Shown here: positions 21,754 through 47,873 of the stretch, one piece after another | Layout: every line of letters starts with the position of its first letter | Position numbering within the stretch: position 1 is the first letter of the stretch | From: a virus | IMG/VR virus record: IMGVR_UViG_3300045988_094716 | Coordinates: 47,865-111,864 of that record | Reading direction: 5' to 3' (one strand) | Length of the DNA stretch: 64,000 bases | Program-made: the position numbers and the translations under genes | The notes under the pieces: model-generated | Databases searched by the model: none | What the model was told of the DNA's origin: nothing | What the model saw: only the letters and a program-made list of their open reading frames with translations

Positions 21754-21945
21754 TTAAGACATTTTCTTCCTCCGAAAATGCCCTGAGCGGGGCTGACAGC
21801 CGGGAAAGACCGGCAATATATGCCAAGGTGCTGCAAATGGGAGACAGGGCGAGCCCAAACCTCGCTGTGGAAACACATGCGGTTTCGAATACCGTCCTTG
21901 GCACCAGAGCCCGAACGTCCATCTATTAGATATTGGAGGCATTTT

Positions 21946-22842
21946 ATGAAAAAGATTGATAAACTTACAAAAGAAGAAATTGAGCAAGCTTTTGAGGAAA
22001 GCAAAAGTTAGGCTGCGGTTGCGGAGAAGCTTGGATATTCAAAAAATGGTGGAAGTACGAATCATGTACTTCAAGATTATGCAAAAGCGCACAATATAAA
22101 TACTTCTCATTTCACTGGGCAGGGCTAGAATAAAGGGAACGTGGATTTGTCTCGTTTTAAAAATGGAAGACGAATAAAGGATTTAAAATCCGCACTTCTT
22201 TCTATCAAACCATATAAGTGTGAATGTTGTGGAAACTCTGAATAGATGGGCAAACAGATTCCATTGCAAGTACATCATATTGACGGAAACCACATAAATA
22301 ATGAGTTAGACAATCTTCAGTTGCTTTGCCCGAATTGTCATGCACAAACTGATAATTGGTGCAAAAATAATATCGGAAAATACAAGACCGTGAGCGATAA
22401 AGATTTTCTTGATGCGTTAAAAACAACATCAACTATAAATGCTGCTCTTGAAAAAGTTGGAATTTATTATTCTGCGAGAGTGTGGTATGACAAAGCAAGG
22501 CAACTAATGATTGAAAACAACGTAACTCAAATTCCACGTGAAAAGGTTATCCGTGAGAAAAAAGAAAGAAAAAGAAGAAAAATCAAATATTGTTCAATAT
22601 GCGGAAAAGAAATGAGTCCGCGTGCAAAAGGATGTCTCTGTAAAAATTGTTTAAAAGGAAATCCTTACAGTAAACGCATTGATTTTCCTGATAAAGAGCA
22701 ATTGAGGGTAGACACAGCTTCAATGTCCTTTCAAGATGTTGGAAGAAAATATGGAGTATCAGGAAATGCAATACGTAAATGGTGCAAGCATTATGATTTA
22801 CCATACAGAAAATTAGATATGAACAGTAAAGAGGAAAATTAA
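21946..22842 (+). pseudogene. HNH endonuclease gene; a single frame interrupted only by three TAG codons. Pseudogene or amber-recoded gene
   Basis: frame open for 299 codons except TAG at 22009, 22126 and 22243; HNH core LQVHHIDGNHINNELDNLQLLCPNCH lies downstream. Confidence 0.6.
22246..22842 (+). CDS. HNH endonuclease catalytic portion (ATG-initiated segment after third TAG)
   Basis: HHIDGN...N...CPNCH HNH motif. Confidence 0.55.
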   Translation: MGKQIPLQVHHIDGNHINNELDNLQLLCPNCHAQTDNWCKNNIGKYKTVSDKDFLDALKTTSTINAALEKVGIYYSARVWYDKARQLMIENNVTQIPREKVIREKKERKRRKIKYCSICGKEMSPRAKGCLCKNCLKGNPYSKRIDFPDKEQLRVDTASMSFQDVGRKYGVSGNAIRKWCKHYDLPYRKLDMNSKEEN

Positions 22843-22855
22843 CGTTGATAAAAAA

Positions 22856-22882
22856 GAAGCTGTAAAAAAAAAATACAGCTTC
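22856..22882 (+). terminator. 9-bp perfect hairpin GAAGCTGTA-(A)9-TACAGCTTC, possible bidirectional terminator
   Basis: inverted repeat directly after HNH gene stop. Confidence 0.4.
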
Positions 22883-22889
22883 TATATAT

Positions 22890-22977
22890 GCCGCAGTGAT
22901 GGAGTGACATACATTTCCCGCTTAAACCGGGACGCCTGAAATATGGATCGTGGGTTTGAATCCCACCTGCGGCACCA
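22890..22977 (+). tRNA. tRNA-Leu (anticodon TAA), long variable arm, CCA encoded
   Basis: acceptor GCCGCAG/CTGCGGC; anticodon arm TCCCG-CTTAAAC-CGGGA; T arm GTGGG-TTTGAAT-CCCAC. Confidence 0.75.
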
Positions 22978-22980
22978 TAT

Positions 22981-23054
22981 CGAGAACGTGGTGTAATGGT
23001 AACACGCCTGCTTTGGGAGCAGGAGTTGCAGTTCAAATCTGACGTTTTCGACCA
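22981..23054 (+). tRNA. tRNA-Pro (anticodon TGG) with imperfect T-stem, possibly degenerate
   Basis: anticodon arm CCTGC-TTTGGGA-GCAGG; acceptor CGAGAAC/GTTTTCG; ends ACCA. Confidence 0.45.
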
Positions 23055-23149
23055 GTTGGTTTTCCAACATGCTTTTCATAAAATACATTTCCTATTATTC
23101 TTGGCTCTCCAAAAATGGAGCAATAGGACACAGCAAGCCAAGTATATAA

Positions 23150-23223
23150 TGCGTCGTAGCCAAGCGGTTAAGGCAGGGTCCTTTGAAGTCCCGATTGCGA
23201 AAGTTCGATTCTTTCCGGCGCAA
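23150..23223 (+). tRNA. tRNA-Gln (anticodon TTG)
   Basis: Gln-type D arm GCC-AAGCGGTTAA-GGC; anticodon loop CTTTGAA; T arm GAAAG-TTCGATT-CTTTC; acceptor TGCGTCG/CGGCGCA. Confidence 0.6.
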
Positions 23224-23230
23224 TTTATAT

Positions 23231-23315
23231 GCCACAGTGGTGGAATTGACCTACACATCTATTTTAGGGGTAGACGCCGAAAGGCTTGCGAGTTTGAGTC
23301 TCGCCTGTGGCACCA
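23231..23315 (+). tRNA. tRNA-Leu (anticodon TAG), long variable arm, CCA encoded
   Basis: acceptor GCCACAG/CTGTGGC; anticodon arm TCTAT-TTTAGGG-GTAGA; T arm GCGAG-TTTGAGT-CTCGC. Confidence 0.75.
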
Positions 23316-23421
23316 CGGTCATAGAATGGTTGCGTACCGTTTATTGATCTCCTTTGATTGCCACTATTATTCCCGGCTCGCCAGTGATGGTGCAGTAGTG
23401 CTTTGTAAGCTGGGTTTTCAT

Positions 23422-23496
23422 GCAGCGGTCGTACAACGGCTAGTACATCAGCCTTCCAAGTCGATGGAGTGGGTTCGATTCCCATTCGCTGCTCCA
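23422..23496 (+). tRNA. tRNA, probably Gly (anticodon TCC), with an A:C mismatch in the anticodon stem
   Basis: acceptor GCAGCGG/TCGCTGC; D arm GTAC-AACGGCTA-GTAC; loop CTTCCAA; T arm GTGGG-TTCGATT-CCCAT; CCA encoded. Confidence 0.5.
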
Positions 23497-23677
23497 ATCT
23501 CGTATGGGTAGGATCTTTAGCAGTCAGATCCTGCTGCGCCTGTGCGAGATACCACCCCGAAAGGGGCTAACGAAATTATCCATGTACGTTATTCTCGGCT
23601 CGCTCGAAAGAGTGCAGCGTGCCTTTGCAAGCCGAGCATCCCAGCCTAGTGATGCCAGTTGCTAGGTTGGTTCTTAT

Positions 23678-23753
23678 GCGACTGTAGTTCAATTGGCAGA
23701 GCGTCAGATTTCCAATCTGAATGTTGCGGGATCGTCCCCCGTCAGTCGCTCCA
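23678..23753 (+). tRNA. tRNA-Gly (anticodon TCC), CCA encoded
   Basis: acceptor GCGACTG/CAGTCGC; anticodon arm TCAGA-TTTCCAA-TCTGA; 76 nt. Confidence 0.75.
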
Positions 23754-23980
23754 CACGCAGCCCCTGACGCTGCACCGGTTACTCAGAGCCGAAAGGAACC
23801 TATATGTTACGACATGGTTGCCAAGAGTGATCATATTGGAACGCGACGTAGCTTGGATAGTGAGAATTAAATTCTGAGGTATACGGCTGGATAGCTTAAT
23901 GGTAAAAGCGCTCGGAAACACCGAGAGATGAGGTTCGATCCCTCCACTGGCATCGCGCCGACGAAAGTTGGCGGTTATAT

Positions 23981-24056
23981 GGAATAGTAGCTCAGTTGGT
24001 TAGCGCCGACAACTTATAATTGTCAGACGCGAGTTCAAATCTCGACTATTCCACCA
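23981..24056 (+). tRNA. tRNA-Ile (anticodon TAT, reads ATA), CCA encoded
   Basis: acceptor GGAATAG/CTATTCC; anticodon arm GACAA-CTTATAA-TTGTC; T loop TTCAAAT. Confidence 0.65.
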
Positions 24057-24197
24057 TCCCGAAAGGGCGTACATAAAATCTGCTAGAACTTTTGTTTTAT
24101 AAGCGAATGAATAATATGACGTTAATACGTCTATTGTTTTTTGCTTATTTTCGGGGATTTAGCTATATAACACAGGATACGAAAAGGAGGTGGTTTG

Positions 24198-24281
24198 GTG
24201 AAACATTATGGAAGTATTTGCGAGATTGGTGGTTCTAAGATTGAGCCTGTCTCGTGTATCACTGGTGGTTCACCTTGTTAG
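24198..24281 (+). pseudogene. C5-MTase fragment carrying the catalytic PC of motif IV (GTG start, ends GGSPC-TAG), out of frame with the rest of the gene
   Basis: ...IEPVSCITGGSPC in frame A; canonical PCQDLSIAGKR is restored only by removing 4 nt (TAGC, 24279-24282). Confidence 0.5.
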
Positions 24282-24870
24282 CCAAGACCTTTCTATTGCC
24301 GGTAAGCGGGCAGGTTTGGCTGGAGAACGGTCTGGTCTATTTATGGAAATGATTCGTGTGATAAAGGAAATGAGGGATGCCACCAATGGAGAATGTCCAA
24401 AATTTGCAATCTGGGAAAATGTCCCAGGAGCCTTCTCTTCCAACAAAGGAGAAGACTTTAGATGTGTCTTGGAAGAATTTGCACGCATTGTCGAACCAAG
24501 TGTTTCAGTTCCTCGACCTTCGGGAAGAGAATGTAAGTGGGCAAAAGCTGGAGCAATCGCCGGAAACGGATGGTCCTTGGCGTGGAGATTATTCGACGCT
24601 AGTGGTTGGGGTGTTCCCCAGCGTAGAAAACGTCTCGCGCTTGTCATGGACCTTAGAGGACAATGTGCCGGAAAAGTATTATTTGAGCAAACGGGCGTGT
24701 CAGGGGATCTTGACAAGAGCATCAAGACGTGGAAAACCATTGCCCGACCTTCTGAAGGATGCACTGCAGGAGATGATTCATTGGTGGGAGATGAAAGATC
24801 CTACACTTTGAAGATTCGTTCTGGCTGCGCAGGGGGGGGGGTAAAGGAGCACTCGTGCAGAATGAATTGA
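24208..24870 (+). CDS. DNA (cytosine-5)-methyltransferase segment with motifs IV (partial), VI (ENV) and VIII (QRRKRL); carries a G10 tract near its 3' end
   Basis: SQDLSIAGKRAGL, FAIWENVPG, GVPQRRKRLALV. Confidence 0.6.
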   Translation: MEVFARLVVLRLSLSRVSLVVHLVSQDLSIAGKRAGLAGERSGLFMEMIRVIKEMRDATNGECPKFAIWENVPGAFSSNKGEDFRCVLEEFARIVEPSVSVPRPSGRECKWAKAGAIAGNGWSLAWRLFDASGWGVPQRRKRLALVMDLRGQCAGKVLFEQTGVSGDLDKSIKTWKTIARPSEGCTAGDDSLVGDERSYTLKIRSGCAGGGVKEHSCRMN

Positions 24871-24935
24871 GTGCGACTCTCTCCACTTTGCAAGATCAGA
24901 CTTTGTTCTGTGTAAAGCATTAAGGAGGGAATAGA

Positions 24936-25691
24936 TTGGAAAAAGAAACTAGTTTACATAATTTAAAACAAAATATTTCCACAGCGGGATTTGAAAGCCA
25001 TAGTCAGGATGCTCGATACACTCAGCAAGGTAATACAAGCCCAGCTTGTACGGCTCAATGGGGTACTGGTGGTAATAATATGCCGCTTGTCGCTGAAAAG
25101 AAAGCCTTTGCTATGCAGCGTATTGGTGAATATAAGGAAAACGAACAGGCCAGCACAATGAAATCTCGTGATTATAAAGATGCAACTGATCTTGTAGTTG
25201 AAGAGAAAGAGGTGAAATGTGCTGGATTTCCACTTGGATTTAGAGCAGAAAATACGAAATGCTACGATGAAGTGGCTACTACGCTTTGCAATGGTACGCG
25301 GCCTGGATTTACTACTGGATGTGTTCTCAATTGGATTGTTCGCCGCTTGACTCCTGTCGAGTGTGAACGGTTACAGGGTTTTCCTGATGGATGGACCGAT
25401 ATTGGCGAGTGGGTTGACGAGAATGGTAAAAAGCACAAGCCAGCTGATTCTCCTCGGTACAAGGCACTCGGTAATTCAATCGCTTTGCCTCAGTGGTATT
25501 GGATTTTCCAGAAAATGAAGCCGTATATCGGTGAAAATCCTACGCTTGGCAGTCTTTTCGATGGGATTGGTGGCTTTCCGCTTGTCTTTGAAAGTACGTA
25601 TGGTGATGGTACTGCTATCTGGGGATCTGAAATCGAACCGTTCTGCGTTGCAGTAACTAAGAAGCATTTTCCAGAAAAGCAAGGAGGATAA
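24936..25691 (+). CDS. C5-MTase segment: target-recognition region + motifs IX/X, followed by motifs I-III at its C-terminus (circular permutation); TTG start
   Basis: RRLTPVECERLQGFPDGWT...YKALGNSIALP (IX/X), then LFDGIGGF...SEIEPFCVAVTKKHFPE (I-III); AAGGAGGG RBS. Confidence 0.6.
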   Translation: MEKETSLHNLKQNISTAGFESHSQDARYTQQGNTSPACTAQWGTGGNNMPLVAEKKAFAMQRIGEYKENEQASTMKSRDYKDATDLVVEEKEVKCAGFPLGFRAENTKCYDEVATTLCNGTRPGFTTGCVLNWIVRRLTPVECERLQGFPDGWTDIGEWVDENGKKHKPADSPRYKALGNSIALPQWYWIFQKMKPYIGENPTLGSLFDGIGGFPLVFESTYGDGTAIWGSEIEPFCVAVTKKHFPEKQGG

Positions 25692-25692
25692 T

Positions 25693-26235
25693 TTGCCAGA
25701 AAACAAAGGATATTTAACAGCTGACCGATCTGCGGCAGGCGATGAGCGATACACACCGGTTTACGCGGTTATTCCATTGCTTGAATTTGCCCCCCCGTCG
25801 AGTGAAGCAGTGATTTGGTGTCCGTTTGATAAAGAGTGGTCTGCCTTTGTGAAGGTGTTCAGAGATGCTGGATATAAAGTAGAATGTAGCCACATTGATA
25901 ACGGGCAAGATTTCTTTACATATGAACCAGAAAATTGGGATGTTATAATTTCAAATCCTCCTTTTAGCAAGAAGGATGAAGTATTACGTAGGGCCTATGA
26001 ACTCGGAAAGCCGTTTGCTCTACTGCTTCCTGCAAATAGTATTCAGGGTAAGACGCGATTTGATATTTTCAAAAATGACGTACAGATGCTATGTTTTGAT
26101 TCTCGAATAGGATTCATGGACCCTAAACACGCAGACAGCCCTGTCGAGGGAGTGTCTTTTGGAAGTGCATACTTCTGTAGAAATTTTCTTCCCAGTAAGT
26201 TAGAGTTACGAAAACTTGATAAGAAAATCTCATAA
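25693..26235 (+). CDS. DNA N6-adenine methyltransferase, small phage Dam-like (NPPF motif); TTG start
   Basis: ERYTPVYAVIPL N-terminus, IISNPPFS catalytic motif; AAGGAGG RBS. Confidence 0.65.
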   Translation: MPENKGYLTADRSAAGDERYTPVYAVIPLLEFAPPSSEAVIWCPFDKEWSAFVKVFRDAGYKVECSHIDNGQDFFTYEPENWDVIISNPPFSKKDEVLRRAYELGKPFALLLPANSIQGKTRFDIFKNDVQMLCFDSRIGFMDPKHADSPVEGVSFGSAYFCRNFLPSKLELRKLDKKIS

Positions 26236-47862: not shown

Positions 47863-47873
47863 AGGAGGATTAA

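Follow-up and report, generated by a model that had tools for sequence, protein, structure and literature searches.

A length-variable poly-G tract as the probable on/off switch of a circularly permuted C5-methyltransferase gene in uncultivated gut phages

Does a run of ten G residues inside a phage methyltransferase gene act as a switch for the enzyme? The run, GGGGGGGGGG, occupies positions 24832-24841 of a 64,000-nucleotide stretch of the IMG/VR virus record IMGVR_UViG_3300045988_094716 (positions 47,865 to 111,864 of that record), here called the window, and lies within the methyltransferase coding sequence. Coordinates are those of the window unless a contig is named, and all features of the methylase locus given below are on the plus strand. 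The locus combines a slippage-prone repeat in an open reading frame (ORF), a repeat length that differs among near-identical genomes, a reading frame that is either intact or truncated, and a gene under selection, as is expected of a contingency locus. We therefore consider it very probable that the G10 run is a slippage-prone contingency tract that switches a C5-methyltransferase between an intact and a truncated frame, and that the copy in the window is in the OFF state.

The initial annotation had pointed out the ten G residues and the lack of other such runs in a window of about 40% G+C, and both observations hold. The G+C content is 41.3% (G alone, 24%), the 64 kilobases (kb) contain no other run of at least six G, and the single further run of at least seven G or C is a C7 at 25790-25796. 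Dinucleotide-preserving shuffles give an expectation of 0.01 for a G10, which turned up in one of 100 shuffled sequences, and the G7/C7 word has five matches in the window against 1.88 expected. GGG is the least used glycine codon in the 33 long ORFs of the phage (8.1% of Gly codons), and in tract-less relatives the corresponding Gly-Gly-Gly is spelled GGT GGT GGC, GGA GGC GGG or GGC GGC GGA. Given this low expectation, the rarity of GGG and the mixed codons of the relatives, the tract is not a by-product of composition or codon usage. G runs are very scarce across the whole window outside the G10, and the distribution suggests that G homopolymers are generally avoided outside methylase genes.

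The tract encodes the three glycines of ...SGCA-GGG-KGALVQ..., and its length determines the frame in which translation would continue. With ten G residues, as in the window, the first ORF (ORF-A) acquires an out-of-frame tail, VKEHSCRMN (24841-24870), and closes at the TGA at 24868-24870. With nine, the sequence reads GGG GGG GGG TAA and stops at once; with eight or eleven, it reads ...CAGGG(G)KGALVQNELSATLSTLQDQTLFCVKH through to a TAA at 24921-24923, an in-frame continuation (24843-24923) that follows from frame arithmetic and from the family alignment. The module removed in the off frames comprises 24 residues that are invariant in that alignment (columns G245-L268). The outcomes that the initial annotation had assigned to 9, 10 and 11 G residues are all correct by this arithmetic, and the 11-G extension does end, as it had stated, just before a ribosome-binding site (RBS) and a TTG start codon (TAA 24921-24923, GGAGGG 24924-24929, TTG 24936).

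Related phages supply a test of the switch. A scan of viral and metagenome collections for the 5' flank of the tract followed by at least six G residues returned, apart from unrelated chance matches, 15 contigs of the window's lineage, all of them IMG/VR contigs of 115-140 kb from uncultivated gut phages that are closely related, with 92-100% identity, the identity to the window across this locus being 91.7-97.5%. The tract is G7 and frameshifted in six contigs, G8 and in frame in seven, G9 with an immediate TAA in one, and G10 in one contig as well as in the window, in the same off frame as G7. The comparison of tract lengths in related genomes that the initial annotation proposed thus gave four lengths in the 15 near-identical contigs and not a single uniform one. 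In a multiple alignment of all 15, the tract is the sole indel from the start codon to the end of the second ORF, ORF-B (24190-25691). A G10 and a G9 contig (L014 and L021) differ at none of 1491 other positions, and a G7 and a G8 contig (L012 and L023) differ at one of 1233. After identical sequences are collapsed, 11 distinct combinations remain (G7, four; G8, four; G9, one; G10, two). The candidacy of the tract for phase variation is therefore supported by length polymorphism, by its being the only indel in the locus, and by sequence-identical pairs that differ in the tract.

The G8 allele yields CAGGGKGALVQ, with the same length and pattern as hundreds of full-length homologues that lack a tract. 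Because it matches these homologues in both frame and length, G8 is the natural ON allele, and the window copy is OFF because its G10 shares the frame of G7 and not that of G8. The initial annotation had sought the open frame in an 11-G allele; the frame was right, but the natural in-frame allele has three G residues fewer. Neither the locus nor 24 kb of the window had a megablast match among GenBank phages, and a scan of genome contigs (GTDB and reference bacterial genomes) with the tract flank gave chance matches only, with no host or prophage copy.

Sequencing or assembly error at a difficult G homopolymer could in principle produce such differences from a tract that has one true length everywhere. 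The data all come from metagenome assemblies, most of the differences are of plus or minus one base (G7 versus G8), and many of the contigs belong to one IMG/VR data set. Yet the 1.5 kb of the locus contain no other indel across the 15 contigs, so that indel error is not general, and the same kind of variation separates Faecalibacterium phages that were isolated and sequenced independently. These Toutatis-like phages encode the same permuted enzyme, described below, with a poly-G tract at another Gly-rich site, after PRPAGGG and between motifs VI and VII. Over 15 contigs this tract ranges from G7 to G14, with seven lengths and all three frames represented; it is G9 in FP_Toutatis (L001, 2656-2664) and G14 in Lelie (L004, 2656-2669), the others being L062-L074. 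The annotations of FP_Toutatis and Lelie differ because the tract puts both cultured isolates out of frame. Four lengths in the window's lineage and seven at the Toutatis site are more than consensus error would give, and we regard an artefact as very improbable.

The gene affected by the tract is larger than ORF-A. The initial annotation had treated ORF-A and ORF-B as two methyltransferases, whereas the Pfam matches identify them as two pieces of one circularly permuted C5-methyltransferase. On the PF00145 profile, ORF-A covers positions 48-131 (motifs III-VI) and ORF-B covers 269-323 (motifs IX-X), with the last 50 residues of ORF-B aligning to 4-45 (motifs I-II); the two ORFs score 81 and 42 bits. 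When the ORF-B tail is placed in front, a single continuous match to positions 4-131 is obtained, with a de-permuted score of 133 bits; this identifies the enzyme as a circular permutant that is broken between motifs II and III. Motifs I (FxGxG), VI (ENV), VIII (QxRxR), IX and X of PF00145 are all present, in the order (III)-IV-VI-VIII-variable-IX-X-I-II and not in the canonical order from I to X. By sequence, then, the enzyme is a member of the C5-methyltransferase superfamily with a permuted topology.

The protein begins VKHYGSI... and ends ...FDGIGG..SEIEPF..HFPE. Its gene opens with the RBS AAGGAGG and a GTG start (24184-24200), GTG being the first codon in 66 of 67 contexts that bear the cassette discussed below. 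The N-terminal 27 codons, VKHYGSICEIGGSKIEPVSCITGGSPC (24198-24278, frame 0), begin in the motif III region and end at the catalytic Cys of motif IV, an assignment based on frame-0 third-position substitutions and on the PF00145 match from position 48. The main frame (frame 1, 24280-24831), which follows from frame arithmetic and Pfam, encodes the rest of motif IV (SQDLSIAG), a linker and YTLKIRSGCA, with motif VI (ENV) at 24415-24423 and motif VIII (QRRKR) at 24619-24633. The GGAGGG RBS and TTG start of the second polypeptide (24924-24938) are present in all 15 relatives, and ORF-B itself (24936-25691) contains, according to Pfam, variable, target-recognition-like modules followed by motif IX (25341-25394), motif X (25458-25490), motif I (FDGIGG, 25554-25580) and motif II (SEIEPF, 25626-25643). 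The real second methyltransferase is the adjacent gene at 25693-26235, predicted from its sequence and Pfam match, with NPPF at 25954-25965, to encode an N6-adenine enzyme. Inspection of the surroundings of the locus revealed no restriction partner near the C5 gene.

Full-length homologues of about 450-570 residues with the same motif order, at most 80% identical, number in the thousands in human and pig gut metagenomes and share the gene neighbourhood of the window. In these proteins, A and B are fused (...DQTLICLADNTSLHNL..., for example in P0001 and P0055). At window positions 24921-24938, relatives have a continuous ...DQTLICLADNTS..., and the window lineage has TAA, GGAGGG and TTG inserted. 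The lineage-specific split reads CVKH*-GGAGGG-TTG and is kept in 15 of 15 tract-bearing relatives. The ON-frame stop lies 12 nucleotides (nt) before the TTG of polypeptide B and overlaps its RBS, an arrangement under which B might plausibly be coupled to A in translation when the gene is ON. RNA structure that gates ORF-B is not supported because the fold around the tract and the ORF-B start is no better than that of shuffles (z = -1.84). Scans for promoters and terminators gave nothing above background, and AlphaFold, run on the intact homologue P0114 with a 12-sequence alignment, returned a mean predicted local distance difference test score of 30.

Under the explanation we propose, polymerase slippage during phage DNA replication would add or remove G residues. 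The G8 and G11 alleles would hold the frame, so that polypeptide A keeps the ...GGGKGALVQ..DQTLF module and ends next to the start of B; G7 and G10 would shift it, replacing the last 27 residues with 9-10 wrong ones; and G9 would end translation at once. Because alleles occur in on and off frames, the population would carry both methylase-on and methylase-off genomes. The selective reason is likely to be bet-hedging, in which protection from host restriction would be set against costs of methylation such as methylation-dependent defences. The data establish the tract itself, its effect on the frame, its polymorphic length in near-identical genomes and the purifying selection discussed next; that slippage is the cause, that activity is lost in the off frames, that B is coupled to A and why the switch is selected are inferred.

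A slippage switch presupposes a working enzyme, and the catalytic motif raises the question of whether there is one. In motif IV, P-C is followed by TAG and one base and then by QDLS in the +1 frame: frame 0 ends ...GGSPC-TAG, and SQDLSIAGK... follows. Were the methylase already dead, with its catalytic motif broken and its gene split, the lengths of the G run might simply drift in a decaying pseudogene; the in-frame TAA at 24921 and the off frame of over half of the contigs would fit such neutral instability. Selection on the gene argues against it. The ratio of nonsynonymous to synonymous polymorphism (pN/pS), pooled by the Nei-Gojobori method among 16 sequences whose pairs are non-independent, is 0.12 in the 27 codons before the TAG, 0.095 in the main frame (24283-24625) and 0.18 in ORF-B, that is, a rounded 0.10-0.18 in every segment. 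Apart from the tract, no stops or indels disrupt the gene segments among these sequences, and third-position periodicity agrees with the proposed frames. The low pN/pS and the periodicity make a decaying pseudogene unlikely, and the tract itself needed two changes to the rarest Gly codon.

The interruption of motif IV is, moreover, shared and constrained. The cassette GGT GGT TCA CCT TGT TAG C (24264-24282; TAG at 24279-24281), which places TAG and one base between the Cys and Gln codons of PCQ, is found in every close relative of the window. A degenerate scan of viral contigs yielded more than 118 cassette loci, with 69 unique contexts among the matches listed; in these, the Cys codon is TGT throughout, TAG is present in 68, and the four bases between TGT and CAR-GAY are TAGA (36), TAGC (28), TAGT (4) or TTGC (1). 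Conservation of the flanks follows frame 0 upstream and frame +1 downstream across lineages that are about 40-50% diverged at the nucleotide level. Third-position entropy is 1.0-1.9 bits along both flanks, whereas the successive codons of GGT GGT TCA CCT TGT show 0.30, 0.42, 0.11, 0.37 and 0.00 bits, and synonymous sites are frozen in those 15 nt only. The last four of these codons have 1.84, 1.76, 1.90 and 0.98 bits in a control set of 110 genes with an intact PCQ. About 30 cassette-bearing genes keep downstream ORFs of 390-650 codons. Taken with the selection on every segment, this conservation leaves neutral instability improbable.

Frozen synonymous sites at the cassette, set against free ones in the intact-PCQ controls, are the signature of a cis-acting recoding signal, and the cassette is a candidate programmed +1 recoding site. 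Judged from the sequence, the most likely mechanism would be a +1 shift that takes place while UAG occupies the A site and yields PC(S/R)QDLS; in the window, the junction peptide would then be IEPVSCITGGSPC(S)QDLSIAGK. Termination followed by re-initiation, with a two-chain enzyme as the product, may be the alternative. The frameshift, if real, resembles out-of-frame A-site decoding because the P-site UGU cannot re-pair in the +1 frame, where the codon is GUU. In the literature, we found no description of the cassette.

Several other accounts of the cassette were ruled out. A 4-nt insertion as a private inactivating mutation is incompatible with conservation across the family; decoding of the TAG as Gln would leave the downstream frame still off by one base; and ribosome hopping over TAGN finds no matching landing codon. 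A frameshift-suppressor transfer RNA (tRNA) for a TAGN quadruplet was also rejected: the eight tRNAs are ordinary, and a tRNA-like element has a shortened loop and scores below threshold. The tRNA genes form an array at 21822-24056, within which an ORF (22246-22842) carries the HNH nuclease signature HHIDGNH...LLCPNCH. The tRNA-like element in the array (23886-23952) has a 5-nt anticodon loop and acceptor-stem mismatches, scores 28.2 bits, below the gathering score of 29, and was not called by ARAGORN.

Further downstream, a second reading frame is conserved after motif VIII. In the window, the +1 frame (frame 2) encodes ...LSWTLEDNVPEKYYLSKRACQGILTRASRRGKPLPDLLKDALQ... at 24626-24811, ends at a TGA (24809-24811) and lies within an alternative-frame ORF that is open from 24377 to 24811. 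Its peptide, ...LSWTLEDNVPEKYYLSKRACQGILTRASRRGKPLPDLL..., has the motif YYLS..ACxGILxRAxxRGKxLP. With this peptide as the query, tblastn found 132 phage records, including Vibrio, Mycobacterium, Pseudomonas, Streptococcus and P1-type phages, and an exhaustive search found 2269 protein clusters; a word-index protein search recovered 12 short ORFs only. In Vibrio phage 1.104.O and Streptococcus phage Javan102, the motif lies in the +1 frame of an annotated full-length methylase, directly after motif VIII. About 60-150 nt after the motif VIII Trp codon, the wobble position moves from the third to the first base of main-frame codons, the latter being the third base of codons in the alternative frame, in two subfamilies (52 and 64 contexts). 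In the overlapping stretch of the window lineage, where substitutions are few, pN/pS is 0.23 in the alternative frame versus 0.66 in the main frame. Among 100 unique family genes, the 240 nt around motif VIII lack stops in 98 genes when read in the main frame and in 99 when read in the +1 frame, and the +2 frame is never stop-free, with a mean of 4.35 stops. The downstream part is joined to the main frame in 72 of these genes and to the alternative frame in 12, often via a poly-G at ...IRGG|C.... The contexts of the subfamilies share no slippery heptamer after motif VIII; internal initiation, another +1 shift or slippage of the DNA at the flanking tracts may give access to the alternative frame.

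Homopolymer tracts recur around this segment. In the 100-gene sample, which was partly chosen with G-containing patterns, runs of G7 or longer are concentrated at two hot spots, one 75-90 nt before the motif VIII codons and the other 165-240 nt after them. Additional poly-G tracts (G7-G9) occur at ...IRGG|CDGGGKG..., about 165-190 nt after the motif VIII codons (L130, L133, L150, L152, L094 and others), and the length of the IRGG|C tract sets which frame, main or +1 (YYLS), joins the downstream half of the enzyme. The upstream hot spot and the IRGG|C tract bracket the dual-coded segment. The adjacent N6-adenine gene has a tract of its own, the C7 at 25790-25796, which comparison with the relatives places in frame in the window. 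In 16 related contigs it is C6 (nine), C7 (six) or C11 (one); C7 gives the full 180-residue protein, and C6 cuts it after about 38 codons. The states of the G and C tracts combine freely (G7/C7, G8/C6 and G7/C6, for example), and the C7 tract is a candidate second switch that would be ON in the window.

These observations allow a broader and more tentative proposal, which we consider possible and somewhat short of an even chance: the G run would be one layer of a multi-layer frame control in a C5-methyltransferase family of gut phages. In such a scheme, +1 recoding at GGU-GGU-UCA-CCU-UGU-UAG-N would be required for the enzyme, the YYLS..ACxGILxRAxxRGKxLP peptide would be made as a beta-like subunit or via a second frameshift, and poly-G tracts would flank the dual-coded segment, with slippage choosing among the products rather than merely switching the gene. 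Signs of translational frame control such as the cassette and the alternative-frame periodicity also lend something to another interpretation of the G run, namely that RNA polymerase or the ribosome slips on it, so that every allele gives mixed frames and the run tunes expression. Long homopolymers are known to cause transcriptional slippage, and slippage of this sort would be compatible with a genomic switch. Against it, the tract is absent from most family members and so is not needed for expression, and the polymorphism in the DNA is direct evidence of genomic slippage; as the explanation of the tract, slippage in transcription or translation is unlikely.

Some points count against the contingency-tract explanation. 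Five of the seven sequence-identical pairs have equal tract lengths, and some of these may be the same assembly present in two collections; the independent observations therefore number nearer 11 than 16. The lengths compared are those of assemblies. Homopolymer variation is not confined to methylase genes, as a noncoding A run varies too: a perfect hairpin at 22856-22882, GAAGCTGT-A10-ACAGCTTC, just before a tRNA-Leu gene, has the A10 as its loop, and the run is A7 in three relatives and A10 in one. With PCQ interrupted by TAG and one base, methylase activity depends on the proposed recoding step, and the off state may not silence polypeptide B, which has its own RBS. The contingency-tract explanation remains very probable with these points counted.

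Contingency loci in phages have been proposed very recently, from T-even coliphages, and the same device would here be found in abundant uncultivated phages of the human gut. The tract would be the slippage switch known in bacterial methylases, extended to a C5 enzyme of gut phages, and the genes concerned determine whether the DNA of the phage carries a mark against host restriction. Within a single enzyme family, tracts have arisen repeatedly and independently, and two neighbouring methylases each have their own. By implication, gut phage populations would mix methylation states, with consequences for host range and for how virome methylomes are interpreted. Gene calling would be affected as well: of the database 'proteins' in this family, thousands are truncated ORFs or ORFs in the alternative frame. 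If borne out, the cassette and the dual-frame segment would be new examples of recoding and of overlapping genes in a well-studied class of enzymes.

Several known systems share parts of this arrangement. Programmed +1 frameshifting at a shifty stop is exemplified by prfB (CUU-UGA-C) and antizyme (UCC-UGA-U). The cassette resembles them in its in-frame stop at the shift site, the continuation in the +1 frame, an upstream GGUGG similar to a Shine-Dalgarno sequence, and frozen synonymous sites; it differs in that UGU cannot re-pair, the GGUGG lies 6 nt and not 3 nt upstream, and the product would carry an extra Ser/Arg after the catalytic Cys. The multispecific C5-methyltransferases of the Bacillus phages SPR, phi3T and rho11s are single polypeptides with the canonical motif order and no repeat tract. 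Like the window enzyme, they are phage-borne orphans with a long variable region of repeated modules, which in the present family are gained and lost between relatives (452-567 residues).

In the circularly permuted C5 enzymes M.BssHII, M.Alw26I, M2.Eco31I, M.Esp3I and M2.BsaI, motif X precedes motif I, as it does here. The window enzyme differs from them in its break between motifs II and III, which is not included among the natural C5 permutations given previously (PMC5944983). Division into two polypeptides, as in the window lineage, is shared with the split enzymes M.AquI (alpha/beta) and M.EcoHK31I. M.EcoHK31I is also the nearest precedent for the second reading frame, since its alpha gene contains the coding sequence of the beta chain in a different frame (PMC2836561). 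The conserved peptide of about 60 residues in a different frame of the methylase gene is reminiscent of this organization, although here it is putative and has the YYLS motif, not motif IX.

Closest in mechanism are the phasevarion methylases of bacteria, Type III mod and Type I hsd genes with simple-sequence repeats, in which slipped-strand mispairing alters the length of a repeat in the ORF and shifts the frame (PMC12707154). The slippage of a repeat within the ORF and the alternation in and out of frame would be the same, but the present tract belongs to a phage, with a genome of about 115-140 kb, and to an orphan C5 enzyme, and its role is probably the protection of phage DNA rather than the regulation of host genes. 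Among phages, T2 agt and T4 rIIA are contingency loci with experimental support, poly-G tracts occur in receptor-binding genes of Campylobacter phages and in a methylase gene of Bordetella phage BPP-1, and a 2025 preprint proposes reversible homopolymer frameshifts as a general bet-hedging strategy of phages against host defences (PMC12633550). A homopolymer within a phage ORF is common to all of these; what sets the present case apart is its occurrence in uncultivated gut phages, in two adjacent methylase genes that each carry a tract, and the recurrence of independent tracts at several Gly-rich sites of one enzyme family.

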